Shown here in pieces: positions 24,500-64,000 of a DNA stretch of 64,000 bases (position 1 is its first letter; the number at the start of each line of letters is the position of its first letter). The translations under genes were made by a program, and so were the position numbers. The DNA comes from Larinioides sclopetarius (Eukaryota): the NCBI GenBank assembly GCA_964023285.1, contig CAXIEN010000102.1, positions 2,871,528 through 2,935,527 of the forward strand. The letters run 5' to 3'. The notes beneath the pieces are model-generated. The model was not told the origin of the DNA, did no database searches, and saw only the letters and a program-made list of their open reading frames with translations.

Positions 24500-24532
<33 letters not shown>
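24484..24532. repeat. (ATT)n microsatellite
   Basis: attattatt repeated about 16 times. Confidence 0.9.
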
Positions 24533-24533
<1 letters not shown>

Positions 24534-24539
24534 GAAACT

Positions 24540-24816
24540 ACCAACTCATCACTCTAAAACTTTATTCTTTATAAAGTTATAAGAAATTGATAAAATATAT
24601 ATTTGTGATCATTTATCAATTTCATTTATTGTTACAAATAATGCTAGATATAAGATAGTTTATAGATTAATTCAAATGACAAATATAATTAATGTTTGCC
24701 AATAACACCTAAAATGAATCATTGATTGAGCACATGGCGCAAATGCTCTTATTGGCATTTTTTCAATTTTTAGATATTTTTATGAATTTCTCTGACCCGG
24801 TTCTGTCATCACCCCG
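24540..24816. mobile_element. 3' partial copy of the CAGGGTGAC MITE family
   Basis: It ends ctgacccggttctgtcatcaccccg, homologous to the right TIR at 43750-43773. Shared internal blocks include gctcttattggca. Confidence 0.5.
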
Positions 24817-26759: not shown

Positions 26760-27000
26760 GGACGGCCTTTAAAACTAGTTCTTTCTTCTATATAATTGAA
26801 TGCTTCAGTCTATATTGATATAACGCTTACTTTTAAACGAAACATATTAATAAACTGTATCAAACTTTTTATTCTATTTTAAACAATGTTGAAGCTATCA
26901 AATCGTGATCAGAACCTCCCGAAACGTGTAAATCTATCAAAAAACGGAAGTCGAAAATTTTCGCGATTCCAATATTTCCTTCTTATATATGATACATGTA
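26760..27000. repeat. copy of a dispersed repeat module ending in double hairpin plus TAAAAA
   Basis: ttcttctatataattg..gtcgaaaattttcgcgattccaata..cttcttatatatgatacatgtagaagaaagtaaaaa. Homologous to 40200-40290, 32840-32930 and 57220-57300. Confidence 0.4.
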
Positions 27001-27552: not shown

Positions 27553-30500
27553 CTAGCTGACCCGGCAAACGTTGTTTTGCCATGTAAATAATTTCTAGAG
27601 AATTTCTAGGGTAGAAAAAAAATAACTAACTTATTGTAAGTGTGTAAGGATGTGGTATATGAGTGAAAAAGGCATGGAGCGCTGTGAACGATGAGGGAAT
27701 ATAAAAATAACAAAACACCAAACATTATTTTTAAAATTTATTATAATTTATTTTAAGTAATAATTATTTATATCATTAATTCATTACATAATATTAATCT
27801 CTTAATGCTACAGCGTGAATAATATTTTTTGTTAGCAAGTCTTTAGCTAATACAAACAAACTTGATGGTTTACCCACTCGAGAGCATGCAACGTATAATT
27901 GTCCGTGTGAAAAACATGGTGTGCTCAAATCTAAGCCACAAACAGACATTGTTTGGCCTTGGGATTTACTAATAGTCATTGCAAATGCCAATCTAATCGG
28001 AAATTGAATACACTTAATTTGAGTTGGCACATCTGTGGGTATAATAGGTATACGTGGTATATATATATTTTCACCTCGAAACTTGTCATTTAAAATGGTG
28101 GCTTCGATAACGTTTTTCATTAATTTTTTAATTACTAATCACGTACCGTTGCACAGCCGTGGAGGGTTCAAATTACGAAGCAAAATAATTGGAGATCTAA
28201 CCTTCAATTGTGAGTTATGCGGTGGCATGCCTGGCAAATCCAGTGAGTTCAAAAACTCTGTTGGAAAATTTACAGTTTCAGTGGCATCGCAAACTGTATC
28301 AATAGATTTATATGATACCATGTCCCCCGGCAATAACTGTTGTATCTTCAGATTCAAAATGTTTTCCACACAATGTGTTCCACATTTTTTTGCCGCTAAA
28401 ATTGATCTTTCTGCAAGCCACTCGAGATTTATGTAATTCGTGTGTACATCGGGAAATATTTTTCCAATGAGAGCATCTTGCGATTCAATGATTGTGCAGA
28501 AATCAGTCGGTAATTTTACGCATCCAGTTTCATCTATAGTGACTTTTCCATCGTCGATATCTAAGAGTTGTTTTGAGAATGTTTCAGCGGATGGATCTTG
28601 AAGCATTTGAACGCGCATATTTACTTTCAGCTATACTTTTTCAACATTACGCCACAATGGCGATGATTTTAAGCAGGCGTTGATTTCATCAGCGTATGTT
28701 GAACGTGGAATGACGGGAAGTGTTTGTCTGAAGTCACCTGAAAGGACTAAGAGTGCCACCAAATAGTTTGTTGCTGTTTTTAATATCTTTCAATGTCCTG
28801 TTCAACGCCTCAAGCGAATGTTTGTGTGCCATGGTACATTCATCCCAGATGATAATTTTACACTGTTTCAGCACTGCGGCTATGGACGATTGTTCTTTTA
28901 TGCTGCACACTGCGTCAATGTTATTTTGAATATTTAGTGGTAGCTTAAATACTGAATGAGCTGCTCTGACTCCATCCAATAAAGTTGCCGCAATACCCGA
29001 TGATGCAACGGCCAATGCGATGCCATTATTTGATCGTATTTCGGCGAGAATTAGCGAAATAAAGAATGTCTTGCCAGTTCCACCTGGTGCATCTAAAAAG
29101 AACCCACCTTGTCCTGCTGAAACTGCGGCGAGCATAATGCGGTCGTAAATGGTTCTTTGTTCCTCATTCATTAGTGGGACATTGCGAGTAACAATCGCCG
29201 CCATTTCTACAGTGTTGTACTGCAGTTCACGATTCATTTCAGTGTTCATTAAATCAGTTGCACCTCGATTTGGCGAATTCATACCGAAATGACTGAGTGG
29301 TAAGTTGGCAATGATAATGCAAAGATCCTCAATCGCAATCAATGCTTCATTGTGCATATCGTCGCTGAATGTTATCTCGAGATCGTTACACTGTGTACAA
29401 TGTTGATGCAATATATCATCAGTCATTGAATCTTTGTGATTATCCCACAATATCTCTGCTCGGGCTGGAAAACATGTAGTCAACACTATAGCGAATAGTA
29501 GATGAATTTGTATTGCTGTACAGTTCAATGGTGCTTCAGCAAGCATACATTCCCACTGGTTGTCATCTTCCAGCAAGGCATGCATCTTTATACGTTAGAT
29601 ACTGTTGCCCATTCACTTTACGTATATCTTGAAATGACAATGGGCCAGTAACATTAACCAACAACAGTCGAAGATAAAAACACTCAGTCTGTCTTAGATT
29701 CACTGTAAATACTCGCCCAAGGCGTTTGATTTGAATAAATTGGGACATGCATCAACTGGTGAACCACGCAATTGCGCCATTCTCACACGCGCTCCAGTAT
29801 TTTCTTCCTAAACTTGTTCTTCGGTTCTTTGGGCTCTTCTATTTCGAATGCTTCTAGATTTATTTGTATCACGGCTTAAATTGGCCCCTTTGCGTTTTGT
29901 TGGCATTGTTCACTGTACAATACAAAACACACATAAATAGAACTGATTGAATTATTTAATGATGAAAATTATTATATTAATAATTTATTTTATCTTTGAT
30001 TACATTAAATATACATGTAAAAATTAGATAGTTTCACAAAAGCGAAAAATTTTATTTTTCTTAATTATATCGAAAATGCATATTGTTAGAAATAGTGAAA
30101 AAAAAAAATTCTGTAGAAGTTAGAGCTCTTATAAATAAACACACAAAAAAAAATTCCCAATTGTAATAAAAATCTAACTTTCACCGAATTCGTTTTTCAC
30201 CATTCCCAACAATATTTTCGTTATAAATACGAAAGAATAACGTATAAAAAGTAATTTATACTTACAACTCAATAGCCGTTGTTTGCGGGAACTCGTGACA
30301 CGTGTTGAGTATTTTAGAGGTTATGTAAATCACTTAATTAACTGATCGTGCGAATTACACTCAAAATTAATAATTTTATTAGTTATTAATAATTAATTAT
30401 ATTCAATAATATTAGTTATTAATAAATAAATAATAAAGTTACTTGAGAATATATTTGATATGAGAGTTACACTGAGATAGTGAAAATGTTTAACTACTAC

Positions 30501-37850: not shown

Positions 37851-39871
37851 ATGAAAATTCTTAGCAATGTTATTTAAAGGAAGGTGTTTAATTAATAATT
37901 AAAAACAGCAACTTTGAAATTTTTTGCTTCCAAATACAAGTGCTTTCTATCTTAGTTTTTTTTTGGCAAGAATTTATTCTCCTTGAAGAACCTAATCAGA
38001 ATTTTTCGGGTCAAGAGAAAGGAGTCTGGATAAATATTTCTTTTTCGATTTTTCAGGCATTATAAACGTTTTTATACAGTACAGTAGAAGTTCAATATCC
38101 CAAAATCGAATGAATCTGGAAAAAATTTGCAGTTATATATGTGAGGTTACCCTTTCAAGCATTAAAAATAATAAAAGTGTATTTGTAATAATGCTTCAAT
38201 TTAAAATTTCTGGAAAAGTTCAGCATTCCATGAAATGTTGAGTAAGTGAACAGCAAACACAGTTTAGCCTGAGCCATAGTAATTTTGGGTTCTTCTGAAC
38301 TCTTTCTCATCTCCAGTCCACTAATCACACACTTGAACTCTGAGTCAAGCTCTGTAACTTTTTGAAATGTTGTTTAAGAAAAGTTGAGAATTTTTTAAAC
38401 TTCTCATTCTGCATATCGCTCCGGTTCTGTGGGGGTTCCTGCTCTTACCCGATTCACTTTTTACAGTAGATAGTTGGGTGTGAAGGAAATAGTATTATTC
38501 ATTTAAAGCAAATTTAAGAAAAAATTTTGGCCCTACAAAATTGTTTTGACATATCAAGGTTTTGAGTGAAAACTCTTTGACATAGCAATCGAAACTAGCA
38601 TTACAGAAATATGGAATTTTGTGGGGGGAAATATTTGAGTAATCAAGAGTATATCAGTTCAGCTATTTAGTCAGTTAAATCAGAATAATTTCAGATAATA
38701 CTTTATGGAGACATTTTTTGCATAGAATTTAATGGTAGATGTAAATATATATATATATATGAGAGTATCTGCAAAATTAAGAATATAGGACTATGAGGCC
38801 TCTCTAAATGTTAATATGAAGCAAAAATAAAACTCTTATGTAGAACTACAGAAAAAAAATTAATCCATGTAAACTAGAATTTCTGTAAATAATAAAATTA
38901 TGCTAATGAAGGGGTGTGGGGAAGCGCCTACAGACTTTTGTTCGACAGAACACCCACTTCACAATGTATTATAGAAAAAAATAATAAATAGGAAACTTAA
39001 TCTCTAAGCCCTTCCTTCTTAAAACATACATTTTATATGAATCTTTTCAATATTTTTATAGCACAACTACCAAGATGGGGAGTCATCTTTCCTGTATGAA
39101 AGAATTAAACCCATTACTATTTTACTACATACAAAAAATAATGGTGAATCATGTATCATTCCAAATAAAACACTTCAGTAAAATGAGCAAGGTTGAAGAT
39201 TAATGAGACGTTAAACAAGAAAGTGGTTTTCTATTTTTTATTTAAGAATTTGACAAATTGATGCATTTATATGATTCCAATCTGCAAAGAAAAAAAGATA
39301 ACAAAATTAGTACAACATGCAATAATCTTAAAACATAAATATATATCACAATTTGAAAATATAAAAAGAATCATGAATAGAGACGTTCTATTTTAAATTA
39401 AAATCTTAATGTAAAACTGTAATTCTACTCGAGACAGATTTAAATTAGAAGTCAACCACTAGTTTTAAAAAATAAGCTGCATAAATGACAGTGGTATAGA
39501 CATCCCAACTTAGTTTTGAATAATTTCTAATACCGTTTGCAAGTAGTTTGAGTAGAAAATTTTTAAACTTCTCCTAGTGGTTAATTATTGTAGTACTGAA
39601 ATATGTAGCCAATTACAGCAAGAGAAACTTAATATTTTTTTTTCAAATTGAAGTAAACATAATATTAAATACATATTAATGGCTTTATATCCCATTATCA
39701 ACATTAAAATACTCACTCATCCAGCTGATTATCAAAAATAAAATTTACCGATGTTAAGTATAAAACTAGTATGATGTGTCCACCACAAAACTTTCTTCTA
39801 TATAATTATATGATTAAAGCCGAGATATATACTACAAACAAATATTGAAAAATTTATGAAAAAATTGAAAT

Positions 39872-40145
39872 AGCAGCGCCACCTGTCGAGCGATCTACAC
39901 AAAAATTTTATCAACAACAATTTAAGTCAAGATAAAACTAAATATAAAATTTCATGAAATTTCTCCCATTAGTTTTTGATGTAGAGTGCCTACGATAAAA
40001 TGTAATAGCAGCGCCACCTGTTGAGCGATCTACTCCAAAATCTAATCAGCAGCAATTTATGTTAAAATACAACTAAATATCAAATTTCATAAAATTCTGT
40101 CAATTAGTTTTTGCGCTAGCGAGCCCACAAAATTTCGGTTACATA
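39872..40145. repeat. tandem duplication, about 138-bp period (2 units)
   Basis: atagcagcgccacctgtcgagcgatctac..aaatttcatgaaatttctcccattagttttt occurs twice in a row. Confidence 0.7.
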
Positions 40146-40290
40146 CACCACACAGACAGACATTTTCTAAAAATAGTGAAATCGTGTTCAGGAGCCCCCA
40201 AAACGTGTAGATCCATCAAAAAACGAAGGTCGAAAATTTTCGCGATTCCAATACTTTCTTCTTATAGAAGAAAGTAAAAAATGAAAAGTG
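40146..40290. repeat. copy of the double-hairpin/TAAAAA repeat module
   Basis: cacagacagacattttc..gaaggtcgaaaattttcgcgattccaatactttcttcttatagaagaaagtaaaaa. Confidence 0.45.
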
Positions 40291-41919
40291 AATTTCTATA
40301 CTGTAAAATAATGATATTTTTTTAACAAATACTTCACCATCATATAGATAAATGTAAATAAACAAATGCATTTTTTTTGAAAAAGGAATGTTGTAACGAT
40401 AAAACTTTTATGATATAGAAGTATGTGGTGCAAATAAATTTAAGCCCTAGGCTAAAAACTATTAATGCATGTTACAAAGAACTTTAATTGGAAGAATTAA
40501 TGTTAAAAATATAAAAAATTACTATACACACATCTCTACAATATATTTACTTAAAGCAATTAGAGTATATTAAAAGTTACCAAAACAAAATAATCAAGAG
40601 TTTTTTTTTTTAAATATATGCGATTCAAATAAATAAAAGAAACAATCATATCTGAATGTTTAAAAATCATTTTTTAATAGTTTAACATTATTGTCCTAAG
40701 TATCTCAACTGAGTCTAGATGAATAGAATCCATTCACTTCTTGGATTCAGGTCCACGAGTGTGAATCAGTTTCCAATCTTGACTGCAAATGTTAATTACC
40801 TCTTATCTTTATAAAAATCATGTTGGTTGTTGAATTTTTTAATCAAATTAATACAATATCTTAACTTTATGTTAATGTATTAGATAAATGTTACCCAATC
40901 TATCGATTTCATTTTATTAAGATTTCGCTTATAAAATAGTTGAGAAAAGAAAAAAAAATTTAGTTCAGCATTTTGATTGTCCTCACCAAACCACTGTTAG
41001 GATTATCCCCACCACCAAAAATAAATCCATTTCAAACATGGCTGTTATTCTTGCTGCAAGAGCAAAATTTCTTCCTCTCCCCCATCCAAAACAGAAGAAC
41101 TATCATTAACTCCTTTGAGACATCAAATATGTTCATTCCAAACCACCTTATTTGGATGTTTCTTTTGTGGACCTGGATCTTCCAGGGATTGAATGAAACA
41201 TCACCGATCTTGGAAAATTTCCAGTGTAAATTGCGAGTGGTTATTTTAAAATGGAGGAATTTGTTTCCAGAGTGGCCACCCTGCTAGAAAGGAACCCATA
41301 TCCATGTCTTATTCAAATTGTACAATTTTATGATTGAACTACTTTCATTTTAACAAGCTTGAATGCAATTAGTCAGATTAGTTAACTAGTTACTATTATA
41401 CATGAAAAGACAAAACTAGCCAAAACAGAATTAAAGTTCTAGACAATTTTCAAAAATATATAATCAAAAATTATAAGGGAAACATGATATGAATAGTACT
41501 GCAGTGATCATTCTAGGAGGGGTGTATGGTACGTGCCGCCCCATTTGCTGAAAATTTTTTGCCCTTTGAACCTGCTTGAGCACACTGAAAATGCACCCCA
41601 CAAAGAAAAATCTCGCCATCTGCCAAATAAAATAATATATCTACTAACAGAAAATTATGCATGGACAATTGCAAAATAAAAAAATCTGAACGAATATATT
41701 CAATTTCAAGATTAAAAATTTTCTTTAAAAACAATATATTTTTTACAGGGTGAAAAAAAAATCTTTTTTTAAAGCATAATGCTCTTTTCTAAAAATATAG
41801 CGCCTTTTTTAGCCTTTGGCTCCCTGCCCCTTTTTAAGCCTAGAATGATCCCTGGTACTAACACAATAAAAATTAACCTCATCAGCTTCTGTACTAATTT
41901 ATTAATAATGGAATAATAT

Positions 41920-42440
41920 CAGGGTGACTACAGAATCTTTCAAATTTCCCTGGTTTATGGATCCTGATTTTATTAGCTTTCTTTGCTGTCTCCCTACTCA
42001 AAATCACTGTATATGCACAATATACTATAAAAACACTTTTACCAGTTATTTAGTATGAAAAAAAAATAAACATTCCATTTAAAAAAAAACAGAATTAAGA
42101 TTCTAAAAAAATTATTAAAACAGCATATTGAAAAAATGCTGAAAATTTTAACATTATACTTTGCAAAAGAAGTTAGATTATATTAAGAAAAAAGGTTATG
42201 ATTTCATTTCAGAACCTTTAAACAGTTTTATAACTAATAAATGCTCTTTGCATGGGTATGAGAATAACATGTTGCAGCAAAAAAAGTATAATAATAGTAT
42301 ATGTGCTTTAATAGTATATATTTTAGAATATTTTATTAGAGAAATTGCAAAAATTCCATTTACTATTCAAAAAATGTTAGACATAAGATAGAAATTTATA
42401 GATAACTCAAATTTATAATTGATGTTGTGGGAAGAAAGAA
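41920..42440. mobile_element. 5' portion of the CAGGGTGAC MITE family (right TIR missing)
   Basis: It starts cagggtgactacagaatctttcaaatttccctgg, and the internal sequence is colinear with 42981-43560. Confidence 0.45.
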
Positions 42441-42586
42441 GTAATTTAAAAACCATAAATTTTTCTAGAAAATTTCCAGTTCAATAACAAGAGGAAACAG
42501 TTCATAAAAAGATGTTTAACTTTGATAAGAAATACCAATATGAAAGATTGAAGATTAATATAAATGGAATACAAAAAGCGACTCAC

Positions 42587-42656
42587 TTTGTTAGCAACAT
42601 CCAATGCATCATAATCAGGAGCCAGTTTCACATATGCTTTCTTTTGTCCATCAGGT
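42587..42656 (-). CDS. RpL23A: ribosomal protein L23a coding exon (.. R)[23 protein letters not shown]; terminal IGII exon not located
   Basis: Acceptor ctctctcag|ACCTGATGG. The exon translates to [23 protein letters not shown] and is followed by donor gtgagt. It matches the uL23 C-terminal region [23 protein letters not shown]. Confidence 0.85.
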
Positions 42657-42980
42657 CTGAGAGAGATGAAAATTAAAAATAATTATCGATATTCAATTCA
42701 TTACTCGCATACATTTAAACTTTGGAAGAAAAAAACTGAAAAAGTTGAAATTTCTAATAAAATATACAAAATTATAGTCTTATTCAAAATGATTTTACTT
42801 GATTTTTAAAAAATAAAAGCATTAAAAAAATAAATGAACCACCAAACTATGAATAAAGCTAATTTTTGAGTTAATAATACTACTTGGACATTGTCCAAAT
42901 AATTTCTTTGCTAAAAACCTCACAATTTTAAAATATCACAGCTCTGAAATTCAGTCAATAAACTTTGATATTATAATATA

Positions 42981-43773
42981 CAGGGTGACTACAGAAACTT
43001 TGAAAAAAAATTCCCTGACTTTTCCCTGACTAAACTTGAAACATTTCCCTGATTTACGGCAACTGATTACATTAGTTTTCAGGCTTTTTTTCCTACTTTG
43101 AATCGCTATATATGCAAAATAAACTATATTAAAAACACATTAACCACTTATTTAATATGAAAGAAATTATATATTTTTATGAAATTTAATTTAAAAAATT
43201 GAGTTAACATTCTAAATTTACATTTAATTTCTATATATGTATTATTATACAATACTTTTACTGTTTATAAATGTTTTATAACTATAGTGCTCTTTGCTTA
43301 TGTACGAGAATAGCATGATATATATTGCAGCATAAATACAAAAATAGTATAATTTACATGCCTAAAAATATATATTTTTGCATAATTAATTAGAGAAACT
43401 CTCAAAACAACACTTGAAATCTCTTTATTCTTTAATAAATCATAAGAAATCGATTACTCCAATGAAAACCTAATGATTTTACAAATGAATGCAAGTTTTT
43501 TTTCTTACGATTTATTATGAGAAATAATTTTAGACATAAGATCGTAATTTATGGATAATAACTCCAGTAATAAATAATTAATGTTTTCCTATTATACTTA
43601 AAATGAATCACTTATCAAGAACTTGCAGGGCACAAAATGCTCTTATCGGCAGTTTTCCCTGAGTTTGGCACATTTTTATGAATTTTCCTGACTTTTCCCT
43701 GATTTTTCCAGATCCATAAAATTCCCTGACTTTTCCCTGAAATCCCTGATTTCCCGGTTCTGTCGTCACCCTG
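42981..43773. mobile_element. full-length MITE, TIR CAGGGTGAC(T/G)ACAGAA, 5-6-bp TSD (A)ATATA; lies in an RpL23A intron
   Basis: Left end cagggtgactacagaaac. Right end gttctgtcgtcaccctg. Both flanks read aatata. Subterminal ttccctga(c/t)ttt repeats occur at both ends. No ORF. Confidence 0.7.
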
Positions 43774-44409
43774 AATATATATTTGCTCATTATTTATGTA
43801 ATTTAATATGTGCAGTTAGTCTCATTTTAAAACAGAAGTAATGCCAATAATCAGTAGATATAAAAATATGATGCATGAAAAATAATTTTCACAAGTTTCT
43901 ATAAAAAACAAATATCCTCATATATAGTTACCCTCATCGCTGACTGACTCTAACACTTGTCATGCGATTCAAAAAGGCAAAATTCTGTAATCGTTTGGTT
44001 TTAAAATCTGTCACGTGATACTTAAAAGTGTGAAATAAACTATTTTCAAAAATCAAATATCATGTGATCATAGAGCAATTTTAAGATTTGCTAAATAAAT
44101 AATTTGTAGAAAATTGACTGAAATTACTCAACTCTTGGAGATTCACATATATAAATTCAATTCTGAAAAACTTATACCTCCAACAATTAGAAAGAAACTG
44201 GCAAGAAATAATAAAAATTAATTGAATTAAACATATTGAATTGCTGCGAACTGGAAAACGTTTAGGTGAAATAATTTTGTATTAGATTGTAAATTTGTTA
44301 CAATCAGTTCTGAGAAAAGGTTTTCAGGTTAAAAGACGGTTTTAAACTGGCACAAAATTTCTAGTTAACTACATATTCTTCAACAGAATAGAATTGTGAC
44401 AAAAAAAAA

Positions 44410-44815
44410 TTAGTTGGAACAGCTGGGATATACGGCACCCACGACGATTTGGCGACGTTTCAATGTAAACAAACATGGCGGCTGGCGAGTTATAATCGTT
44501 ATTCAAGATGGCGGTTATGTATAGTTTCTTATGAAGAAAAGTTCTTGAAGTAAACATTATGTTCTACGCGTTCCGGGCAATTTTTTTTACTTAAAAAAAC
44601 ATCGGCGGCTTCGCTTTCGGCGAAGCAGCTCCCTAGTAGCTTCGCTTTTACATTAACTGTTAGGCAACTAGTTTTTTATTGCCCAGAAATGGAAAGCTCA
44701 ATCTAAAGATCTTCAAAATGGCGGCGCGCGATAGACGCAAACGCGAAAAGTCGCCACTCAAACCAAATCTCGCCAAGTCGCCTTGGGTGCCGTATATCCC
44801 AGCTGTACCAATTAG
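44410..44815. mobile_element. about 405-bp MITE with about 40-bp TIRs, inserted 4 nt from the RpL23A exon 5' splice site
   Basis: Left end ttagttggaacagctgggatatacggcacccacgacgatttggcgac. The right end cccagctgtaccaattag is the reverse complement of ctaattggtacagctgggatatacggcaccc. No ORF. Confidence 0.65.
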
Positions 44816-44819
44816 TTAC

Positions 44820-44996
44820 CTGATCAAAGTGTTGACTTTTTGTACATCAATATTATACAACTTCTTTACAGCATTTCTAATTTGAGGTTTGTTTGCCCTC
44901 TTGTGAACAATGAACACTAATGTATTATTGTCCTCAATCTTTTTCATAGCAGACTCAGTAGTAAGGGGGTGTTTAATTGTAGACCATTGATCAAAT
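44820..44996 (-). CDS. RpL23A: ribosomal protein L23a coding exon (..[59 protein letters not shown](R))
   Basis: Acceptor tttgcag|ATTTGATCAATGG. Donor AG|gtaact. Splice phases match the neighbouring exons. It matches the uL23 core [44 protein letters not shown]. Confidence 0.9.
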
Positions 44997-46127
44997 CTGC
45001 AAATATAAATATACATAACAATTTATATTTTATATCCATTTGCAATGCCGACACCAATAAAAGAATGCTGTATTAAAAGAATGAATTTAAACTTAAATTA
45101 CTAAAACTAAGATCAACTGAACATACAAGAATAAAAAAAATAGCCCATTTCTTTGAATCAACAAAAATGTTGAACAATGTTCAATTAATTTCACATTAAT
45201 ATACTATCTGGGCATAACATTACAAAAAAAATGAAAAGTACGTAAAATAGAAAAAAATCGTTAATTATTTTTTCTATCAGGTGAATCAATCAATGAAAAC
45301 TAGAAATACAAAGACAAAACGGAAGAAAATCATGCCTGAACATACTTTTAATTGGAAGTTAACAGCAATCAAATTGCTTAATAAAAACTTTATATTTGAT
45401 ACTGAATAAAATAAGAAGTTCTGTCTATTATGGGATTTAGAAATAAAAAATGTGCAATATTTTGATGATATTCTTAAATATGTCACTTGATCTAATTTAT
45501 CAATACTTGTGAATCTTTAGTAGATTAATACTCTCAGTAATAACCTCTTTATTAAGGGCATCTATTCTTGATCATTTCAAAATGCCAACATTAATAGATC
45601 AGAATGACTTTACTCCAAAAGAAAGGTGACAGGTAACAAGTATAAGCATTATTTTAAGAATTCTTTATTGGGTCACACTACATGTAAACATACCCTACTC
45701 AACTCTCCATCTCACCAGACCAAGATGATATAAAAAACTGTCTACAAACTCAATTTCCGCACACACAAAAAAAAGTGTGCCTACCGAGTCCTATATTGCC
45801 ACCAATAGCAAAAGTGTTAAGTTATATGCGAGTGGAACGCCTGCATGCATGTATAACAGAAGCTATTGCTACCAATAAACAAAATCAAAACATGTTACAG
45901 AAAGAAAAATAAACTAAGATTTAAAATCTTACTTTAAAAATTCTGAAGTGATTTAAATTTAATAATGAAGAAACCTGTAAAAATATAACAGCCTACACAC
46001 TTTGAAATTTTTTACAAATGGCATTCGCCTACATTATATAGGTATATACCTCACTTCTGTTATAATGAAAAATTCCACCTGACACATGTACATAAATAGA
46101 GGATTTTAGAATCCAAGAATCATTAAT

Positions 46128-46381
46128 CAGGGTTCCCACTGTTATCAAAGAAAAAAATTTCAAGGACTTAATTTAAGAATCTTTTATGGGAAAATTCAAT
46201 GACTATAAAATTACACATTGCATGCTTACACATAAACTGAATTTTTCACTTGAAAAAATTTAAAATGTGTATTGTACAACTCTTTATGTTCATAAGTGTG
46301 AGGAGACAGATTATTGGCAGTAGCTTAAGAATTGAAGGACCTAATTTCATCAAAGGACTTTTAAGGATTGTGGGAACCTTG
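46128..46381. mobile_element. 254-bp MITE, TIR CAGGGTTCCCAC, 5-bp TSD TTAAT; in an RpL23A intron
   Basis: Left end cagggttcccactg at 46128. Right end gtgggaaccttg ends at 46381. ttaat lies on both flanks. The termini match those of the 10941-13494 element. Confidence 0.75.
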
Positions 46382-46945
46382 TTAATATGTTCTAGGTAGA
46401 GCTGTAATCTAATGTACTTCTGCTTCCTAAGACTATGTTTCACTAAGAAATACACTACCCCAAATGTTGATGCCAATTCATTTTAAATTGACAATGACAT
46501 ATTACAAAGAGCAATCTGATAATATTGGATGAAAAATGCCAACATGTAACAAAATGTAAAATTCTTACCATAAACGTTAATTTTTAATCCTATATGAAAT
46601 GGATATCCTAATGGAAATAGATAATATAATGGATATGGAGCAGGCAAATGACGAATCAATAAGCAAAAATAGACTTATTCTGTTTAAGAATCTCCAAGGA
46701 AATTTAGGGCATTCAAAAAATAATTGTGAATGAAATTTAGAGCACCATACATTAAGTTGTCAGATTAAAGGAACGAAAATCACAAAACTACACAAGTGCT
46801 TTTTTTTTATAAAAAATCTTATCTCACCAACTCAAAAGTCACTTATTTTGTTACTAATTGGTAACTTTTTAAATTATTAATTAGTATCAAATTAATACCA
46901 ACACATGACAAACAATCACATTATTTAATACTCCATAAAACTTGC

Positions 46946-47264
46946 CTAGGTCTCCTTGGGCAACTCTTCCTGGGATACTTGGGATTCCTCATCAATGTAA
47001 GGGTTCTTGGTCGTCTAAATTGGACAGTAGTTCTAATTTTCCTAACTCTGGTTCCATGGGCTCCTTTAACTACTTTCTTCTTAGCTGCTAGAGCTTTTGC
47101 TTTAGCCTGGGCAGCACCTAACTTGCCTTTTCCCTTAGGGGCTACCTTTTCACCTTTACCTGCTGGCGCTGCAGCAGCTTTAGAAGCAGGAGGGACATTT
47201 TCTTTTTTTGTCTCCTTGGGTTTCTCTGTTTTTGCTGGCTTAGCAGCAGTGGCTGCTGCTTTTG
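46946..47264 (-). CDS. RpL23A: ribosomal protein L23a coding exon (N-terminal A/K/P-rich extension through ..[31 protein letters not shown]); initiator exon not located
   Basis: Acceptor tcttcag|CAAAAGCAGCAGCC. Translation: (A)[57 protein letters not shown], matching the uL23 region [37 protein letters not shown]. The exon ends AG|GCAAGT, an apparent GC-AG donor. The phase joins correctly to the next exon. Confidence 0.85.
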
Positions 47265-49825
47265 CTGAAGACAAGATATATAAAATTAGAATTGTTTCCT
47301 ATAATCACATCACAAATATTAAAACAATTATCTGGTTCTTCAAAAGCTGATTTTCTTCAATAAAATAAATTTTACATTTAAAAACTTAAAATAACCACAT
47401 TTTCAAGTTAATTCCTACATCTTAACAGTGGAATGGCTATCATTATATAAATACTAGTTGACAAAGTAACTTACTACATCTGAAAAAGTTCAAGATTTTT
47501 CTATATTTATATTAACAGTAATGACTATTTAAAAAAATGCTATAGGCACTGGTGACAAGAATATTGTATACTAAATTTGTGAATATTTATGAATCCAAGA
47601 GTTTACATTTAATTCAATATAATCTTCATCTTATAAAATTTGTATACATGGTGCAAATAGCCCCTTTGTTTTTCCCTGTTGACAAGGTTTGTTTTCATTT
47701 ACAAATCCCAACCCAGACGTGGATCTTTCCGCTAATCGGTTGGGCAAATCATGCGTTGCGAGAAATCTTCTTTTCATGAATTATTGATTTAAATAAGTTA
47801 GTGAAGATTAGAATACATCTCAATAGAAAAAAAACTGGCATTTGGTCGATTATAAATCCATATCGTCCTCAAATCACAGTGCATTCATTTTAGCGAGCAG
47901 GGTTAACATAGCAAACATGAGAGTTGCGTCGAATTTTCCTGGGGGTTGGCGAACTTAAGCGAGCAAGAGAAGGAGCCTCCGTTTTATAAATTTTAAGATT
48001 GATCAATGATGCAAAGAGAACATTTATAAAATAAAATTATACTTTACAGTTATTTTATGCAATCACCTAATTTAGATGGTAAGCATATTAAGAAATATTT
48101 GTTCTCCTTAAATGCGAAATTTATAGGCAAGAAAATAGCTCATCAATTTTTCGGTTTTCTGGAAATTTTATTTTGTCCTATGACATTTACTAATTATAAA
48201 AAGAAAATTTAAAGGTGATTTTTCTAACTAAAAATTTCACAGATAAATATGTTTAATGAGAACGCATATTTCTCAATAGGTATACCGTTTAAATTATATT
48301 AAATATTCAAGAATGTAATGATCTGTCTCCTATCCTATATAATTTTTGAATGATAAAAACCGAAATATGCGAACGGCAATAAAAATAATTCACAGATCCA
48401 GAAATTCCGGCTTTGAAAAAGGTTCAACTACGGATCACAACCACTCGTTATAGGAACATGCTACCGATTATAATTTTCTTAGTCTCTGTTGATATAAATT
48501 AATCATATCTTCACAAAATTGGCTTCTATGAACACACTACGAACTAAAGCAATCATTAAGTAAATATGGAAGTTAATAATCCGAATTATTATCTTTAAAA
48601 AGAAAATCTGAAATGTAGATTAATTAAGAGTTGTATTTAGGCATAAGTAGAAAGATATAACGATGTCAATCGGTATTTTCAGTTTTTCTTTTATTAATAA
48701 ATTAGAATAAAAATAATGTAAATTAAAATAGAATCAAAAGACGAATTCAAGATTAAATGAATCTGCAAATTGGCATACGTAACCACAAGCGACAGGATTT
48801 AGGCTTAAGAACGATGATAAAGCCTCGATTAATCTCTTTACATAAGTACTTATAAACTGCATATTGATATCCAAATAAAGTCGATGGTAATTACACAATA
48901 AGAAAACTCGCATATAAATTAATATATCTAATAACACAATTCGACATGAATATAACCACGAGGTGGGATATCCGAACAGCCATGTTAAAAAAAAATAATA
49001 CAACATATATAAAATATTAAAGAACTTATAAGCAAAAATATTACATAAAAATCAATTCAAACTAATATTAAAATAAAATTACGTTTTTCTGATGCTCCTT
49101 TCTTTGATTTCGGACCCATTTTTATTCAATATAACTCTTACACCGCGTTAGAAACACGTTTTCAATTTTTCCAAATCCAGAGTCAGTCACAGAGAAACAG
49201 TTGTGTTGCCAATCTCCTACTGACGAATAAAATAAATTATTTGATAATTTATTTTCATGCCTTTCCAAAAAATTTCATGATGATTTAACAAATAGATGTA
49301 ATAGCTTAGTTCTCTATACTCTATTTACGTTAAAATAATTTTTTTTAATAAATTTGGATTTAAAATTGTAAATGATTAATGTGCAGTTACAGACCTGCAG
49401 CACTATAGTGTTAGCTATCATTACAATAAAGAAGTTACAAGATTTTTTTTATTTTTTAATCGATTCTGCATGCTAAAATTAGCCTCTATACAAAATTTGA
49501 GGCTGAACGAGATTTTTTTTTCATTTACAAAAAAAATATTAAAAATTGTCTTTTTCGAAGAGTGCGAAGACGAGTAGATTGGACCTTGGTGGAAGTGGGT
49601 GCCTTCGAGGTAAAAGCTGACAGCGTGCAGCCAATGATATTTCGAAATTGTTCATCAGCTGCGGAGATTGACCAATGGCTGACGCCAAAAAATCACGTGT
49701 CAGCGTATTTGACATCACATGCATAAGGTCCATTCAAAGTGTGACGTCGCACCACATGAACTCCGCTTGCGGGTGATAGCGCTAGCAATGAAAAGCTTGC
49801 GGTGTTAAAACTATCGTATTCTTTC

Positions 49826-50987
49826 CAGGGCCGTACCGAGTTGACCCTGCGCCCTTGGCGGATCTGCAAAGCTGCGCCCCACCGTAACTTTACACATTTT
49901 CATTATTTTTTTTCATCATTTCTATTAAAAACCTATCCAGAAAAGCTACATCCTTTAAAATGTTTTTATATTCATATTTCTCTGATTTGTTAAATGTGCA
50001 TATTTTGTGAATTATTAAATAGGTTTAATACCACATTTTCTAAAAGACAAAAATCGAACAAACTTTATATATCTTATTGCAGCTATTGAACATTGACTTT
50101 TCTGTAATACTTAATAAAGAAAATAATTTATTTTCTATGCATTCTGTATAGTGTATAGCTCATACATTAGTAATTATAAAAAAAGAGAGATTAGAGCTGA
50201 AATTAAGAATTGGGTACATATGAGATGAAAATTCAAGTTTTATAAATATCAAATAATTTTTTTTATATCACAGTTTCTTTGCCTGTGGTACAAGTTGTGA
50301 ATATTCAAAATTAATATTTTTGATGGCGGAAAACATAAGAATATTCAAAAATTTCGTTTCATCAAGTTTGTTTAAAAATAAGTTCTAAAGCTTATTTACG
50401 GAATAAGAAATAGGAGACAGTGGATTGATATCTATTAATTGAGTAATTGTTAGCTTTCGTCAAATATTAATAACAAATTATTGAAAAGCTGTTTTCACGT
50501 TGAACAATTACTGCTCCCGTATTAAAACATTTACGTATTAATTGAAAGGAGCTGAACATCCGCATAAGACGAAACTAACAAACAAAAATTAAATGGGAAA
50601 TTATAAAATATCTGAACGTCTTATTACAAACTAAATGAAAAAAGATAAGGATTTTAAAAACTAAAAAAATACTGAAGTAGAAACTAAATTTACAAAAACA
50701 ATTTCAAGAAAATATCATTTAAAAAAATATTACTATCAGACTTTTCTACAATAAATAGTGTCTTTTCTGAAGATAATATATCATTATAAAAAGATAAGTA
50801 TCAGAATTTTCTAAATAATAAGTTTTGTAATGTAATAAAAGTTCGGATTTTTAGGTAGATTCCTTATAGGAAAAATCTACCAATTGCAATGGTTCTCATG
50901 ACGCGACTTCCGGAAAATTTTTGCATATCTTCACCGATCATGACTCCTAGAACCCCAAACCACCCTCCGTTAAAAAGTTTATATGTA

Positions 50988-59778: not shown

Positions 59779-60166
59779 GTACAATAAACATATTCTATTT
59801 ATAAACATTTAGAATCAATTTATAATTCCGTACCTTCGAATACTCGGGGATTTTTATATTATAATTGAATAGTATTTCATAATTTGCTTTAGTTATTGCA
59901 TTTAATTTAGTAAACTGGTTATTAAGCATCGTTTTAACTGATGTAACTGCAGTATATTTTCTTACTTGCTTTATTTTAAACTTGAATATGTTATCCGTAT
60001 TTGGCGTGACTTTTTCTCGCCAATGTAAGTGTACATAATAAACATTACTGACAAATTTTTCTTTAATGGAAGTTATTTGAACACTAAATCTTTATTATTT
60101 CATATATGTCTTTTTCCTCGTTATTATTTTAATTGTGACCTTATGAACTTCAATATCATCATTATA

Positions 60167-61674
60167 CACTCATGTCCATAAATTAAGGATAAGTCAGAAT
60201 CACACAGAAATTGAACTCTAAAATAAAAATTTCACCTGTAGAATTATCACACACATCTTGAAGAAGAATATGCAAATTACAGGAAACCACCAGATGGCGC
60301 GGATAGTACGTCACAATGACGAGAGTGTAAGAGAGGGGTATATAAGGAATGGTGGCAAAGAAGTAAAATTGTTCACAAGCGCTTTAAAAGCCTTTTAGTG
60401 CAATAACCGCATAGTTATGGCACAAAGGAAGCATTTGGATGATTTTTTACGTGGTAAAATTATCGGACGACTGGAATGTGGACGTACCCAGCTGGAAGTA
60501 TCCGAGGAATTTGGAATCGCCCAGAGTGTCATCTCCAGGCTTTGGCAACGATTCCAAGATGATGGTAATGTGAGTAGATGTTACAGCACAGGTCAGACCC
60601 GAGTTACAAAGCCGAATGAGGACCGGTATTTGGCAGTTACTGCCAAAAGAAACAGACGGAGCACAGCATCAGACCTGTCTCGTCAGCTCTCTTCAGCTAC
60701 CGGTACGACAGTTTCAAGGCAGACCGTGTACAGACGCTTAGGGCACATTGGTCTAAATGCTCGTAGGCCTGTCAGATGTGTTCCACTCACCGCAACTCAC
60801 TGTCGCCTGCGATTAGCCTGGAGTAGAGAGCATGCATTGGGGACACCGCAACAGTGGTCTTGTGTGATGCTTTCCGACGAGTCCAGGTTTAGTTTGCAGT
60901 CTGATTCTCGCCAGACTTTCATATGGAGAGCTCCAGGTACCCGTTACCACCAAGAGAACACCATTGAACGACACCGTTATGGTGGTGCAGGATGGCTCGT
61001 TTGGGGAGGAATTATTCTTGGTTCCAGAACTGACCTGCATGTTCAGAGTGTAACGATGACAGGCCACATCTATCGGGATGTCATTCTGGAACAATATGTA
61101 CCTTTGTTTCGGGGCGCCATGGGTGCTGAATTTCTGTTTATAGATGACAACACCCGTCCTCACCGTGCAAACATTGTAGACGAATGCCTTCAATCGGAGG
61201 ATATCACCCGTATGGATTGGCCAGCATACTCACCGGACTTGAATCCAATAGAGCATGTGTGGGATATGCTTGGCCGACGAATTGCAGACCGTCAACCCCC
61301 TCCCACCTGTCTACCGGAACTTCAGAGGGCATTGCTTGATGATTGGTGTAATATTCCCCAAGATCAGATTGATAATTTGATACTCAGCATGCCTAGGGTT
61401 GTAAGGCCTGTATTGCATCGTCCGTCCGGGAGACATACTCCGTATTAACCATCATACTAACCATGTTATACTGTTTTTTGTAAATAGGTTCTTTTTTGAA
61501 ATTTGCTCCAGGGAGTAAAAATCGCAATTTTTATTAATTATGTCAAACATATAGCATCTTTTTGGCTCTTTACCTTTTGTTTAATAAATAGACTTTACAA
61601 ATAAGTCAAATTTGTTTTGCTTCTGTCTCTTTCTTTGCCTGAACTTCATTATCCTGAATTTATGGACATGAGTG
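60167..61674 (+). mobile_element. complete Tc1-family (DD34E) DNA transposon with TA target-site duplication
   Basis: TIRs: cactcatgtccataaattaaggataa at 60167 and ttatcctgaatttatggacatgagtg ending at 61674, 25 of 26 matching. Flanked by TA at 60165-60166 and 61675-61676. Contains an intact transposase ORF. Confidence 0.9.
60417..61448 (+). CDS. Tc1-like transposase, 343 aa, uninterrupted
   Basis: N-terminal paired-like helix-turn-helix (GRLECGRTQLEVSEEFGIAQSVISRLWQRF). Catalytic D in VMLSDESRF and D in FIDDNTRPHRA. Then 34 residues to the E in WPAYSPDLNPIEHVWD, giving DD34E. No internal stops. Confidence 0.9.
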   Translation: MAQRKHLDDFLRGKIIGRLECGRTQLEVSEEFGIAQSVISRLWQRFQDDGNVSRCYSTGQTRVTKPNEDRYLAVTAKRNRRSTASDLSRQLSSATGTTVSRQTVYRRLGHIGLNARRPVRCVPLTATHCRLRLAWSREHALGTPQQWSCVMLSDESRFSLQSDSRQTFIWRAPGTRYHQENTIERHRYGGAGWLVWGGIILGSRTDLHVQSVTMTGHIYRDVILEQYVPLFRGAMGAEFLFIDDNTRPHRANIVDECLQSEDITRMDWPAYSPDLNPIEHVWDMLGRRIADRQPPPTCLPELQRALLDDWCNIPQDQIDNLILSMPRVVRPVLHRPSGRHTPY

Positions 61675-64000
61675 TAAATGAAATAGTGCATTTGAAAACA
61701 AATGCATGCGCAATTAAGAATTATGTTTGATAAAATTTTATAAAAAAGTTTAAGTGAAAATAACATGTTTTTCAATATATTTCAATTACCTACTGAAAAG
61801 ATCTAAAAAGAAACTTAAGATTTAAAAGAAATTTTCAAAAATTATTATAATGGACAGCTTTTTGATACTTAAGAATAAATAATTAAGGTTACAATGATTA
61901 AAGTCCTCTAAAAATAATTAAGTTATCTCTGGTCACAATTCTTAGAAAGAAATATAAAATTTTTATATTAAAGTATTACTGGTACATCGTATTGTTCTAA
62001 GAAACAATTAATAGATTATGCTTAAATTTACACAAATTTTAATTTAAAAAAAAACAAGAATATCTAATGAGAAAATCACACAATGTCTATATATCCCCAT
62101 TTTTAAATTCCATGCTTACTTCAAATGATATGAATGCATGACATTAGCACATAACATGAAAAGCATTAACATATCAGTACATATTCTTCGAAACAAAAGT
62201 CTATTAGCTCCGTTTTATGTGTTCTTAAAAATGTCACGTATTTAAAATAATACCAATAACATTTTAACTTGTAAAGTTAAACTACTTTTTCTACGTAAAT
62301 AAGAAAATTAAAATGATTTCTTAAGAAAAAACTACTCTAAATATTTGCAGAAGAACGGAATTAAATATGATTTCGATCACCAGTCTGATATCGGTGTTAT
62401 GAGAGAAAGGCATTTTTAATCCAGTGTTAATTTGATTAAAGCAATTTGTAGTAAAAGTCCTTAAGCTAATAACTATTATATGCACGTTTCTATTCCGAAA
62501 GTTGATAATTTCGTTTCTGGCAGAAAGTTGTATTCTTCCATTATAGTTTATTCATTCTTGCGTGTCCTTAAATTGTGAAAAGACTATACTAACGAATTTT
62601 GAAACACATAAATTTCGGGAATAGATATTTTTATTCCTCAGCTGAACAGGAAGTAAAAAAAAATAATAATAACTGAAAATAGCATTCTCAGTATACAAAA
62701 TGATTAACGTTTTCCGAATAGTAGATGTAGTCAAATAATATTCTTACAACAAGTTGCAAGCCAAGTCCACCCTAAAAAAGTTACAGTGCGAAAGTTTTGC
62801 GCGCTCTGCAGACTCGTGATATTTCGCCAAAAAGGTGTCCCAGCTCTTACCCAACCCGCAAGTCACGTGAGTAATTTTGGGTCCACTGCTTTCGAGGAGA
62901 AATATAGAACTGACTTCCTCTATTTATCCCAACTCTATGAATAATGTTTTTGAAACTGGAACTATGAAACATTCATTTTGGAAAATTGATCCTAAAATGT
63001 TTTTATTTCTAAAATTGAATACGTTTTTCTTTTCTTTTTTAATTAATTGATTACTTACATGTTATCTAAAATGTTATATAATGTTTTTTATTCAACATCT
63101 TTTTGAAGAATTAATGCAATGGTAATTTATAAATATTTTACTTAACAATAATAGTAACGGTCATTTATTACTGATCAAAAACAATAAAAAACTTTAAGAC
63201 AGCAAAATTTTTGTCACCAAAGTTAAAGCGTTCAGATATTGCTTTTTTTTTACAACTTTGGTAATATTAAACAACAAATATCGCATTTTTCAGAACAGGA
63301 AGCTACAACCGTCTTGTACGACATTGTATGAAAACTTCTTTGATTTATGAAATACATTCCTTTGAATTATGCCTTGTGTCTGTCCCTTTTTGTTCAGAGA
63401 ACACAATTAGTCAAAAATGAAATGACAAGATGAATGAAATGAAAGATTTGGTTTTGTTACCAAAATTATAGATCAGCATATAATTTTGGATTTTGTCCAT
63501 CAAACGGAAAGGGTAAAAAATATACTAATGAACTAATACAATGTGTTACTAAAGAATTGAATACAAAATGCATGGGTTATAAAAGGGTACAAGAAATTCG
63601 AGAAGGGAACACTCACATTTTTTAAAAAAAAATTTCAGCTATAAAGTGCATGGGGAAATGCCGAACAACATCTTGAATATACAAAATAATTATTAAATCA
63701 TTACTAAAAATAAAGGAGGTAGTCTTTGTGTATATTGGCGCTCTACGGGACCAAAGGATTGAGAGCCACAAAATGTGGAATAAGCATATTTTGGAATTAG
63801 GGATTACGTACCTAAGAGCCCTTTTTGTGAAATTTTAAGTAATTAAAAAGTAAGTGAACATAGCGCTTTTCCTTAATAACTTTCGACTTATCGATATATT
63901 CCGATTTACTTCCAATATTAATAACTATATAACTCTTTTCTGCTTACACATATTTATACTTATTTATTCCATATTTCCTAAGGGTTTATGCACTGTCAGT

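Follow-up and report, generated by a model that had tools for sequence, protein, structure and literature searches.

Evidence for an intact five-exon RpL23A (uL23) gene with a GC-AG intron and transposon-bearing introns in Larinioides sclopetarius

The DNA considered here is a 64-kb stretch of contig CAXIEN010000102.1 from the spider Larinioides sclopetarius, hereafter the window. Its minus strand carries an RpL23A gene, encoding the ribosomal protein uL23, which is very probably intact and functional and is single-copy within the window. The gene has five exons and is best described as an ordinary housekeeping gene. The model is not new, being already part of the published annotation of this species. 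Two features of its splice donors are examined in detail: a GC donor at exon 2, and a miniature inverted-repeat transposable element (MITE) beside the donor of exon 3. Both are real but minor, well-understood variation, and neither is a new phenomenon.

Joining the five exons (Table 1) yields a coding sequence of 618 nucleotides (nt), that is, 205 codons without an internal stop. In an exact-sequence look-up, the product was found to be residue for residue the deposited protein CAL1277462.1, "unnamed protein product [Larinioides sclopetarius]". The Ribosomal_L23eN domain (PF03939) of this 205-amino-acid product scores 82.0 bits against a Pfam gathering cut-off of 27, and it is followed by Ribosomal_L23 (PF00276) at 58.2 bits against a cut-off of 30.8. 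The best database match is uL23 of Argiope bruennichi (XP_055951187.1), with 96-97% identity over the full length, and the product forms one 90%-identity cluster with the uL23 proteins of Argiope and Araneus. Nine arachnid uL23 proteins, 65-97% identical to the window protein, align with it collinearly from M1 to the C-terminal IGII. In this alignment, all nine orthologues keep MGPKSKKGASEKPK at the N-terminus and DVANKIGII at the C-terminus. The Lys/Ala-rich N-terminal extension is present as in the orthologues, and all invariant core residues are retained. An earlier note on this DNA had identified the gene as uL23 (L23a) from three phase-consistent exons, the second to fourth of the present model; both the identification and these exons stand. 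A tblastn search with the 205-amino-acid protein found no second uL23 copy within the window. The genome measures 2.27 Gb, with 30.5% GC and 47.5% repeats, and its MAKER annotation drew on RNA-seq evidence and Augustus (PMC11323941).

The first and last exons, which the earlier note had reported as unaccounted for, are both present. Exon 1 lies 1818 nt upstream of exon 2, and its phase exactly suits the exon-2 acceptor. It is 94.6% identical to its counterpart in Araneus and 93% identical to that in Argiope, and the donor GTAATTTTATTT is common to all three. Exon 5 follows the GTGAGT donor of exon 4 after the full length of intron 4 and is preceded by a pyrimidine tract and CAG. It matches Araneus at 15/15 positions and Argiope at 14/15, and its flanks align as well. 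When the pattern ATHGGNATHATHTAR was searched for in the whole window, a single perfect match was obtained, ATTGGAATCATATAA on the minus strand, and this is exon 5. The terminal exons had been overlooked because the earlier search extended over only about 1 kb, while introns 4 and 1 are both longer than that. Of the explanations then offered, namely that the exons lie further away, that the sequence has diverged, or that the copy is compromised, the first is correct; the other two are rejected in view of the intact frame, the identity to CAL1277462.1 and the collinear orthologues. A ATTGGTATTTCT string near 42540 in intron 4 resembles an exon encoding IGI. It was rejected as a candidate, since an AG acceptor is lacking and the resulting C-terminus would be wrong, and the real exon is conserved at 39281-39267. 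The primary transcript is presumably spliced at the five-exon junctions.

The region upstream of the ATG was likewise expected to contain a terminal oligopyrimidine (TOP) start, and a candidate is found there. A conserved block, ...AACTGTTTCTCTGTG, lies about 75 nt 5' of the ATG. Araneus ventricosus shares the block GGCAACACAACTGTTTCTCTGTGAC without a difference, and the counterpart in Argiope bruennichi, CTCTTTCTCC, is nearly the same. Transcription may begin at the pyrimidine block, which is a plausible initiator of the TCT/TOP type. At the other end of the gene, a polyadenylation signal follows the stop codon closely (Table 1).

Table 1. Features of the uL23 gene and of the elements within its introns (window positions; a slash marks a splice junction)
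Feature	Position	Strand	Description
Candidate polypyrimidine (TCT/TOP-like) initiator	49205-49191	minus	CAACACAACTGTTTCTCT, ~75 nt upstream of ATG
Coding exon 1	49119-49083	minus	37 nt, ATG GGT CCG..., MGPKSKKGASEK + 1 nt, donor C/GTAATT, phase 1
Intron 1	49082-47265	minus	1818 nt
Coding exon 2	47264-46946	minus	319 nt, acceptor tcttcag/, donor AG/GCAAGT
Intron 2	46945-44997	minus	1949 nt, GC-AG, acceptor tttgcag/A, holds the 46128-46381 element
Inverted-repeat element, MITE-like	46128-46381		intron 2, ends CAGGGTTCCCAC / CAAGGTTCCCAC, 12-27 nt, TTAAT on both flanks
Coding exon 3	44996-44820	minus	177 nt, donor AG/GTAACT
Intron 3	between exons 3 and 4	minus	2163 nt
MITE 1	44811-44411	minus	401 nt, ends TTGG[T/A]ACAGCTGGGATATACGGCACCC, flanked by CTAA at 44815-44812 and 44413-44410
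MITE family A, full-length copy	43773-42981	minus	intron 3, CAGGGTGAC... ends, 21-nt inverted, 90% complementary
Coding exon 4	42656-42587	minus	70 nt, donor AAA/GTGAGT, phase 0
Intron 4	42586-39282	minus	3305 nt
MITE family A, truncated copy	42405-41913	minus	intron 4, one end, without ~last 215 nt, aligns to 42973-43558
MITE-like element absent from the earlier note	41856-41506	minus	intron 4, ends CAG[T/G]GATCATTCTAGG, 16-nt inverted, GTACT on both flanks
Coding exon 5	39281-39267	minus	ATT GGA ATC ATA TAA = IGII-stop, acceptor ttatctttttttctttgcag/
Polyadenylation signal AATAAA	39242-39237	minus	25 nt past the stop codon, conserved in the aligned Argiope 3' untranslated region (UTR)

The gene was compared with nine orthologous spider loci, taken from Argiope bruennichi (L001, L002), Araneus ventricosus (L003-L006), two Caerostris assemblies (L007, L008) and Trichonephila clavata (L009). 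All four intron positions, together with their phases, are common to the window and to the Araneus, Argiope, Caerostris and Trichonephila loci, and the five-exon plan is the ancestral araneoid one. Intron length, by comparison, varies widely. From ATG to stop, the gene spans 9.85 kb in the window, 5.2 kb in Araneus ventricosus (introns of 1515, 1179, 638 and 1220 nt), 3.9 kb in Argiope bruennichi (959, 996, 807 and 480 nt), 2.5 kb in Caerostris and 12.3 kb in Trichonephila clavata. With a span of 2.5 to 12.3 kb across these species, long and variable introns are normal for the araneoid uL23 gene. Summed over the four introns, the window has 9.2 kb, whereas Araneus has 4.6 kb and Argiope 3.2 kb; insertions of MITEs and other repeats have made the window introns two to three times as large. 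The five intronic elements of Table 1 make up about 2.3 kb of this 9.2-kb total. The first ~880 nt of intron 1 still align with Araneus intron 1 at 75% identity, and Araneus has 886 nt where the interior of intron 4 (42457-39475) measures 2983 nt. When the locus was compared with Argiope by BLAST in search of conserved intronic islands, exons, promoter and 3' UTR aligned, and nothing else.

Some side observations concern these same loci. A 32-nt island in intron 1 (47505-47536) is 94% identical to Araneus intron 1, as against ~75% around it; it has no Rfam match and is not conserved in Argiope. In intron 3, a 451-nt block (43916-44366) has no counterpart in Araneus, where its flanks are essentially adjacent (L003 6292-6294). 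The block has no obvious inverted ends and represents either an insertion in the window or a deletion in Araneus. The Araneus gene itself occurs on four contigs of ~81 kb (BGPR01006383/84/89/90) that have nearly equal lengths and the same coordinates within each pair, which looks like haplotig or assembly redundancy, not gene duplication.

The donor of exon 2 belongs to the GC-AG class, as the earlier note had proposed. The intron reads TAG/GCAAGT ... tttgcag/A, with the C of position +2 at window position 46944 on the gene strand. At this donor, 6/6 orthologous loci compared have GT, and GC occurs only in the window. The donor is CG/GTAAGT in Araneus and Argiope, CG/GTAA.. in T. clavata and one Caerostris, and AG/GTAA.. 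in the other Caerostris. Within 30 nt on either side of the junction there is no in-frame GT donor, and a stop codon lies 21 nt downstream of the exon-2 donor. Consequently, the GC donor is the only one that gives the conserved PRRPR/FDQW junction. Judged from this comparison, the donor is a lineage-specific T>C change at +2 (GT>GC). At -2, a synonymous C>A change (CGA to AGA, both Arg) goes along with it, so that the exon side now equals the consensus. The donor is not of the U12 type (no /RTATCCTT), and intron 2 should remain a substrate of the major (U2-type) spliceosome, as all other donor positions match the U1 consensus. GC donors, which are less than 1% of all donors, are offset by stronger agreement with the consensus and often interchange with GT (PMC2490688).

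At exon 3, an insertion lies next to the donor. MITE 1 has inverted arms at 44408-44460 and 44765-44817, which are 53 nt long and 85% complementary. Its context reads CAG/GTAA CTAA, then the element itself (TTGGTACAGCTGGG ... CCCAGCTGTTCCAA), then CTAA TTTTTTTTTGTC. The flanking repeat is CTAA, or the 8-mer AACTAATT, since TTGG/CCAA is self-complementary. Whether the repeat is read as 4 or as 8 nt, excision of MITE 1 with one repeat copy gives GTAACTAATTTTTTTTTGTC, and the first ten bases of intron 3 are therefore the same before and after the insertion. On this basis, MITE 1 would have entered 4 nt inside intron 3 (or 2 nt, should the duplication measure 8 nt), and the duplicated target site would have rebuilt the original intron start, GTAACTAATT. 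Positions +5 and +6 of the intron thus appear to be target-site duplication, not element terminus. Because the duplication restores GTAACTAATT, the splice signal would be unaltered and the insertion tolerated. The earlier note had correctly recognized a MITE at 44410-44815 next to an AG/GTAACT donor, but had assigned +5 and +6 to its terminus, whereas the direct repeat supplies them; the hazard to splicing implied by a MITE next to the donor is overstated.

Comparison with relatives agrees with this history. In Araneus the site is empty: the BLAST alignment stops at 44816 and resumes at 44410, which corresponds to L003 6237 to 6249 with 11 nt between. The exon-3 donor is GTAAAA in both Araneus and Argiope, so that the absence of a G at +5 is ancestral. 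In a predicted fold, MITE 1 RNA forms a long terminal stem beginning at intron position +7 (-149.7 kcal/mol, z = -6.9), and the minimum-energy structure leaves positions +2 to +6 without a pairing partner. The start of the hairpin at +7 may matter for the tolerance of the element. Both the GC change and MITE 1 are presumably neutral under selection.

Several points weigh against the interpretation of the locus as an intact single-copy gene with two harmless donor changes. Support for the junctions consists of protein identity, conservation and evidence-guided annotation rather than transcript reads. Single-copy status refers to the 64-kb window, and the rest of the 2.27-Gb genome may hold further uL23 loci. 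The target duplication of MITE 1 is of ambiguous length (4 or 8 nt), and among the intronic elements only family A, described below, is demonstrably multi-copy, with MITE 1, 46128-46381 and 41506-41856 being single-copy in the sequence searched. Finally, an assembly error or a polymorphism of the sequenced individual might underlie the GC at the exon-2 donor. If it reflected faulty base calling or polishing, or a rare allele, the true donor would be GTAAGT as in Araneus and Argiope, from which it differs by one base, and GT/GC differences on terminal branches are vulnerable to sequencing error or polymorphism (PMC2490688). However, a long-read assembly to which 10x linked-read data were added seldom contains substitution errors (PMC11323941). 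The adjacent -2 base has changed too, synonymously and in a way that compensates for a GC donor, and GT>GC switches are a common, well-documented evolutionary event (PMC2490688). An artefact or rare allele is consequently improbable. It is also conceivable that the copy is a decaying duplicate, its terminal exons lost or its splicing damaged by transposons, with a cleaner locus elsewhere. Such an origin would suit introns two to three times longer than in Araneus and Argiope, one non-canonical (GC) donor, another donor without a +5 G and with a predicted MITE hairpin from +7, and a paralogue search that covered the window alone. Yet neither terminal exon is missing and the splice signals of both are good, the frame is open, the identity to Argiope uL23 is 96-97% and the invariant core residues are all kept. 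The window gene is syntenic with the single loci of Araneus and Argiope in its promoter, UTRs and intron positions, and the deposited annotation, seen on one contig, is exactly the window protein. The missing +5 G is ancestral, and the Trichonephila clavata gene, at 12.3 kb, is longer still. Decay of this copy is accordingly extremely unlikely.

A further question is whether the two donor features do more than persist. The GC donor, the MITE 1 hairpin or both might be regulatory, for example by making splicing tunable or alternative, or by retaining an intron so as to adjust uL23 output. Alternatively spliced genes show an enrichment of GC donors (PMC2490688), and the predicted stem from intron +7, formed by the MITE 1 ends, is very stable. 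Against this, the GC donor and MITE 1 are confined to this lineage, the closest relative having GT and no MITE; there is no in-frame alternative donor within 30 nt; and it is simpler to suppose that both became fixed neutrally in a strong splice-site context (PMC2490688). A regulatory role is thus very unlikely. A bolder reading, which is doubtful but may be entertained, is that an essential and very highly expressed gene has tolerated two near-lethal-looking donor events, the GT>GC change being buffered by the simultaneous synonymous C>A at -2 and MITE 1, 2-4 nt inside its intron, being harmless only through its target-site duplication and a hairpin that begins at +7. The ~50-bp hairpin would then start just outside the U1/U6 footprint, and if splicing efficiency were measurably affected, the locus would offer a natural test of how far a structured insertion must lie from a 5' splice site. 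The preferred interpretation remains an intact housekeeping gene carrying two minor, presumably neutral changes at its donors.

Beyond MITE 1, the three further MITE calls of the earlier note hold: 42981-43773, 46128-46381 as a short inverted-repeat element, and 41920-42440 as a truncated family A copy at about 41913-42405. Family A is old and locally abundant. Four copies or fragments occur in the window (42981-43773, 199-962, 24528-24796 and 41913-42405), with copies being ~70% identical; the full-length intronic copy, for instance, is 70% identical over 812 nt to the full copy at 199-962. The flanks of family A are AT-rich and degenerate. The full-length copy is absent in Araneus, where window positions 43792-42980 correspond to 51 nt in L003. 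The elements at 46128-46381 and 41506-41856 look MITE-like by structure. Neither these two nor MITE 1 has another copy in the window or the nine spider loci. The two longest open reading frames of intron 4 (40973-41287, plus strand; 41513-41734, minus strand) have no Pfam match, and there is consequently no sign of a nested gene in this intron. Intron 4 also contains a tandem pair of 117-nt units (39862-39978 and 39997-40113) that are 83% identical with a period of 135 nt. Beside this pair, the 88 nt at 40179-40266 are 87.5% identical to 26900-26987, 13 kb away, and belong to an unclassified repeat.

Elsewhere in the window, two regions carry protein-coding transposon sequence or its likely remains. 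At 60165-61676 (plus strand) there is a Tc1/mariner-type transposon with 28-nt inverted ends that are 96% complementary. It contains an uninterrupted transposase reading frame of 343 amino acids (60417-61448; HTH_Tnp_Tc3_2 and DDE_3) and may still be autonomous. The transposon was considered as the autonomous partner of family A, which has CAGGGTGAC ends, and was rejected because its own ends, TACACTCATGTCC..., are unrelated; they are likewise unrelated to the intronic MITEs in general. At 28139-29585 (minus strand), the GC-richest stretch of the window (38.7% GC), adjacent reading frames of 283 and 159 amino acids match a PIF1-like helicase domain and the Pif1 2B domain. They probably represent what is left of a Helitron-type element and not a host gene.

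The results have little import beyond annotation hygiene. The apparent loss of the first and last exons came from too short a search in a repeat-rich (47.5%) genome of 2.27 Gb, in which even compact housekeeping genes carry kilobase-scale introns. For studies of splice-site evolution, the locus provides a dated, lineage-specific GT>GC donor conversion together with a compensating exonic change. For studies of transposon tolerance, it provides a MITE insertion whose donor is apparently preserved by target-site duplication.

The intronic elements resemble known intronic MITEs in being 250-800 nt long and noncoding, in having terminal inverted repeats and, in part, flanking direct repeats, and, for MITE 1 and the full-length family A copy, in showing presence/absence between species. 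In contrast to MITEs as repeat families, three of the five occur once in the sequence searched, that is, the window and the nine spider loci. Human RPL23A is an orthologous protein-coding gene that also hosts the small nucleolar RNAs SNORD4 and SNORD42. A scan of 38000-50500 for such intron-hosted RNAs found no Rfam family at E<=1, and in this respect the window gene differs from its human orthologue. Intron 2 is like other U2-type GC-AG introns, with its GC donor in an otherwise perfect consensus, an AG acceptor and a GT origin at the orthologous position (PMC2490688). GC-AG introns are sometimes linked to alternative splicing, whereas the present case shows nothing unusual and no evidence of it. 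The closest parallels are the uL23 genes of Argiope (XP_055951187.1) and Araneus (GBN18494.1), which share with the window gene the protein, the five exons, the intron phases, the promoter block and a 3' UTR with AATAAA. Unlike these two genes, the L. sclopetarius gene spans 9.85 kb, has a GC donor at exon 2 and carries lineage-specific MITEs in introns 3 and 4.

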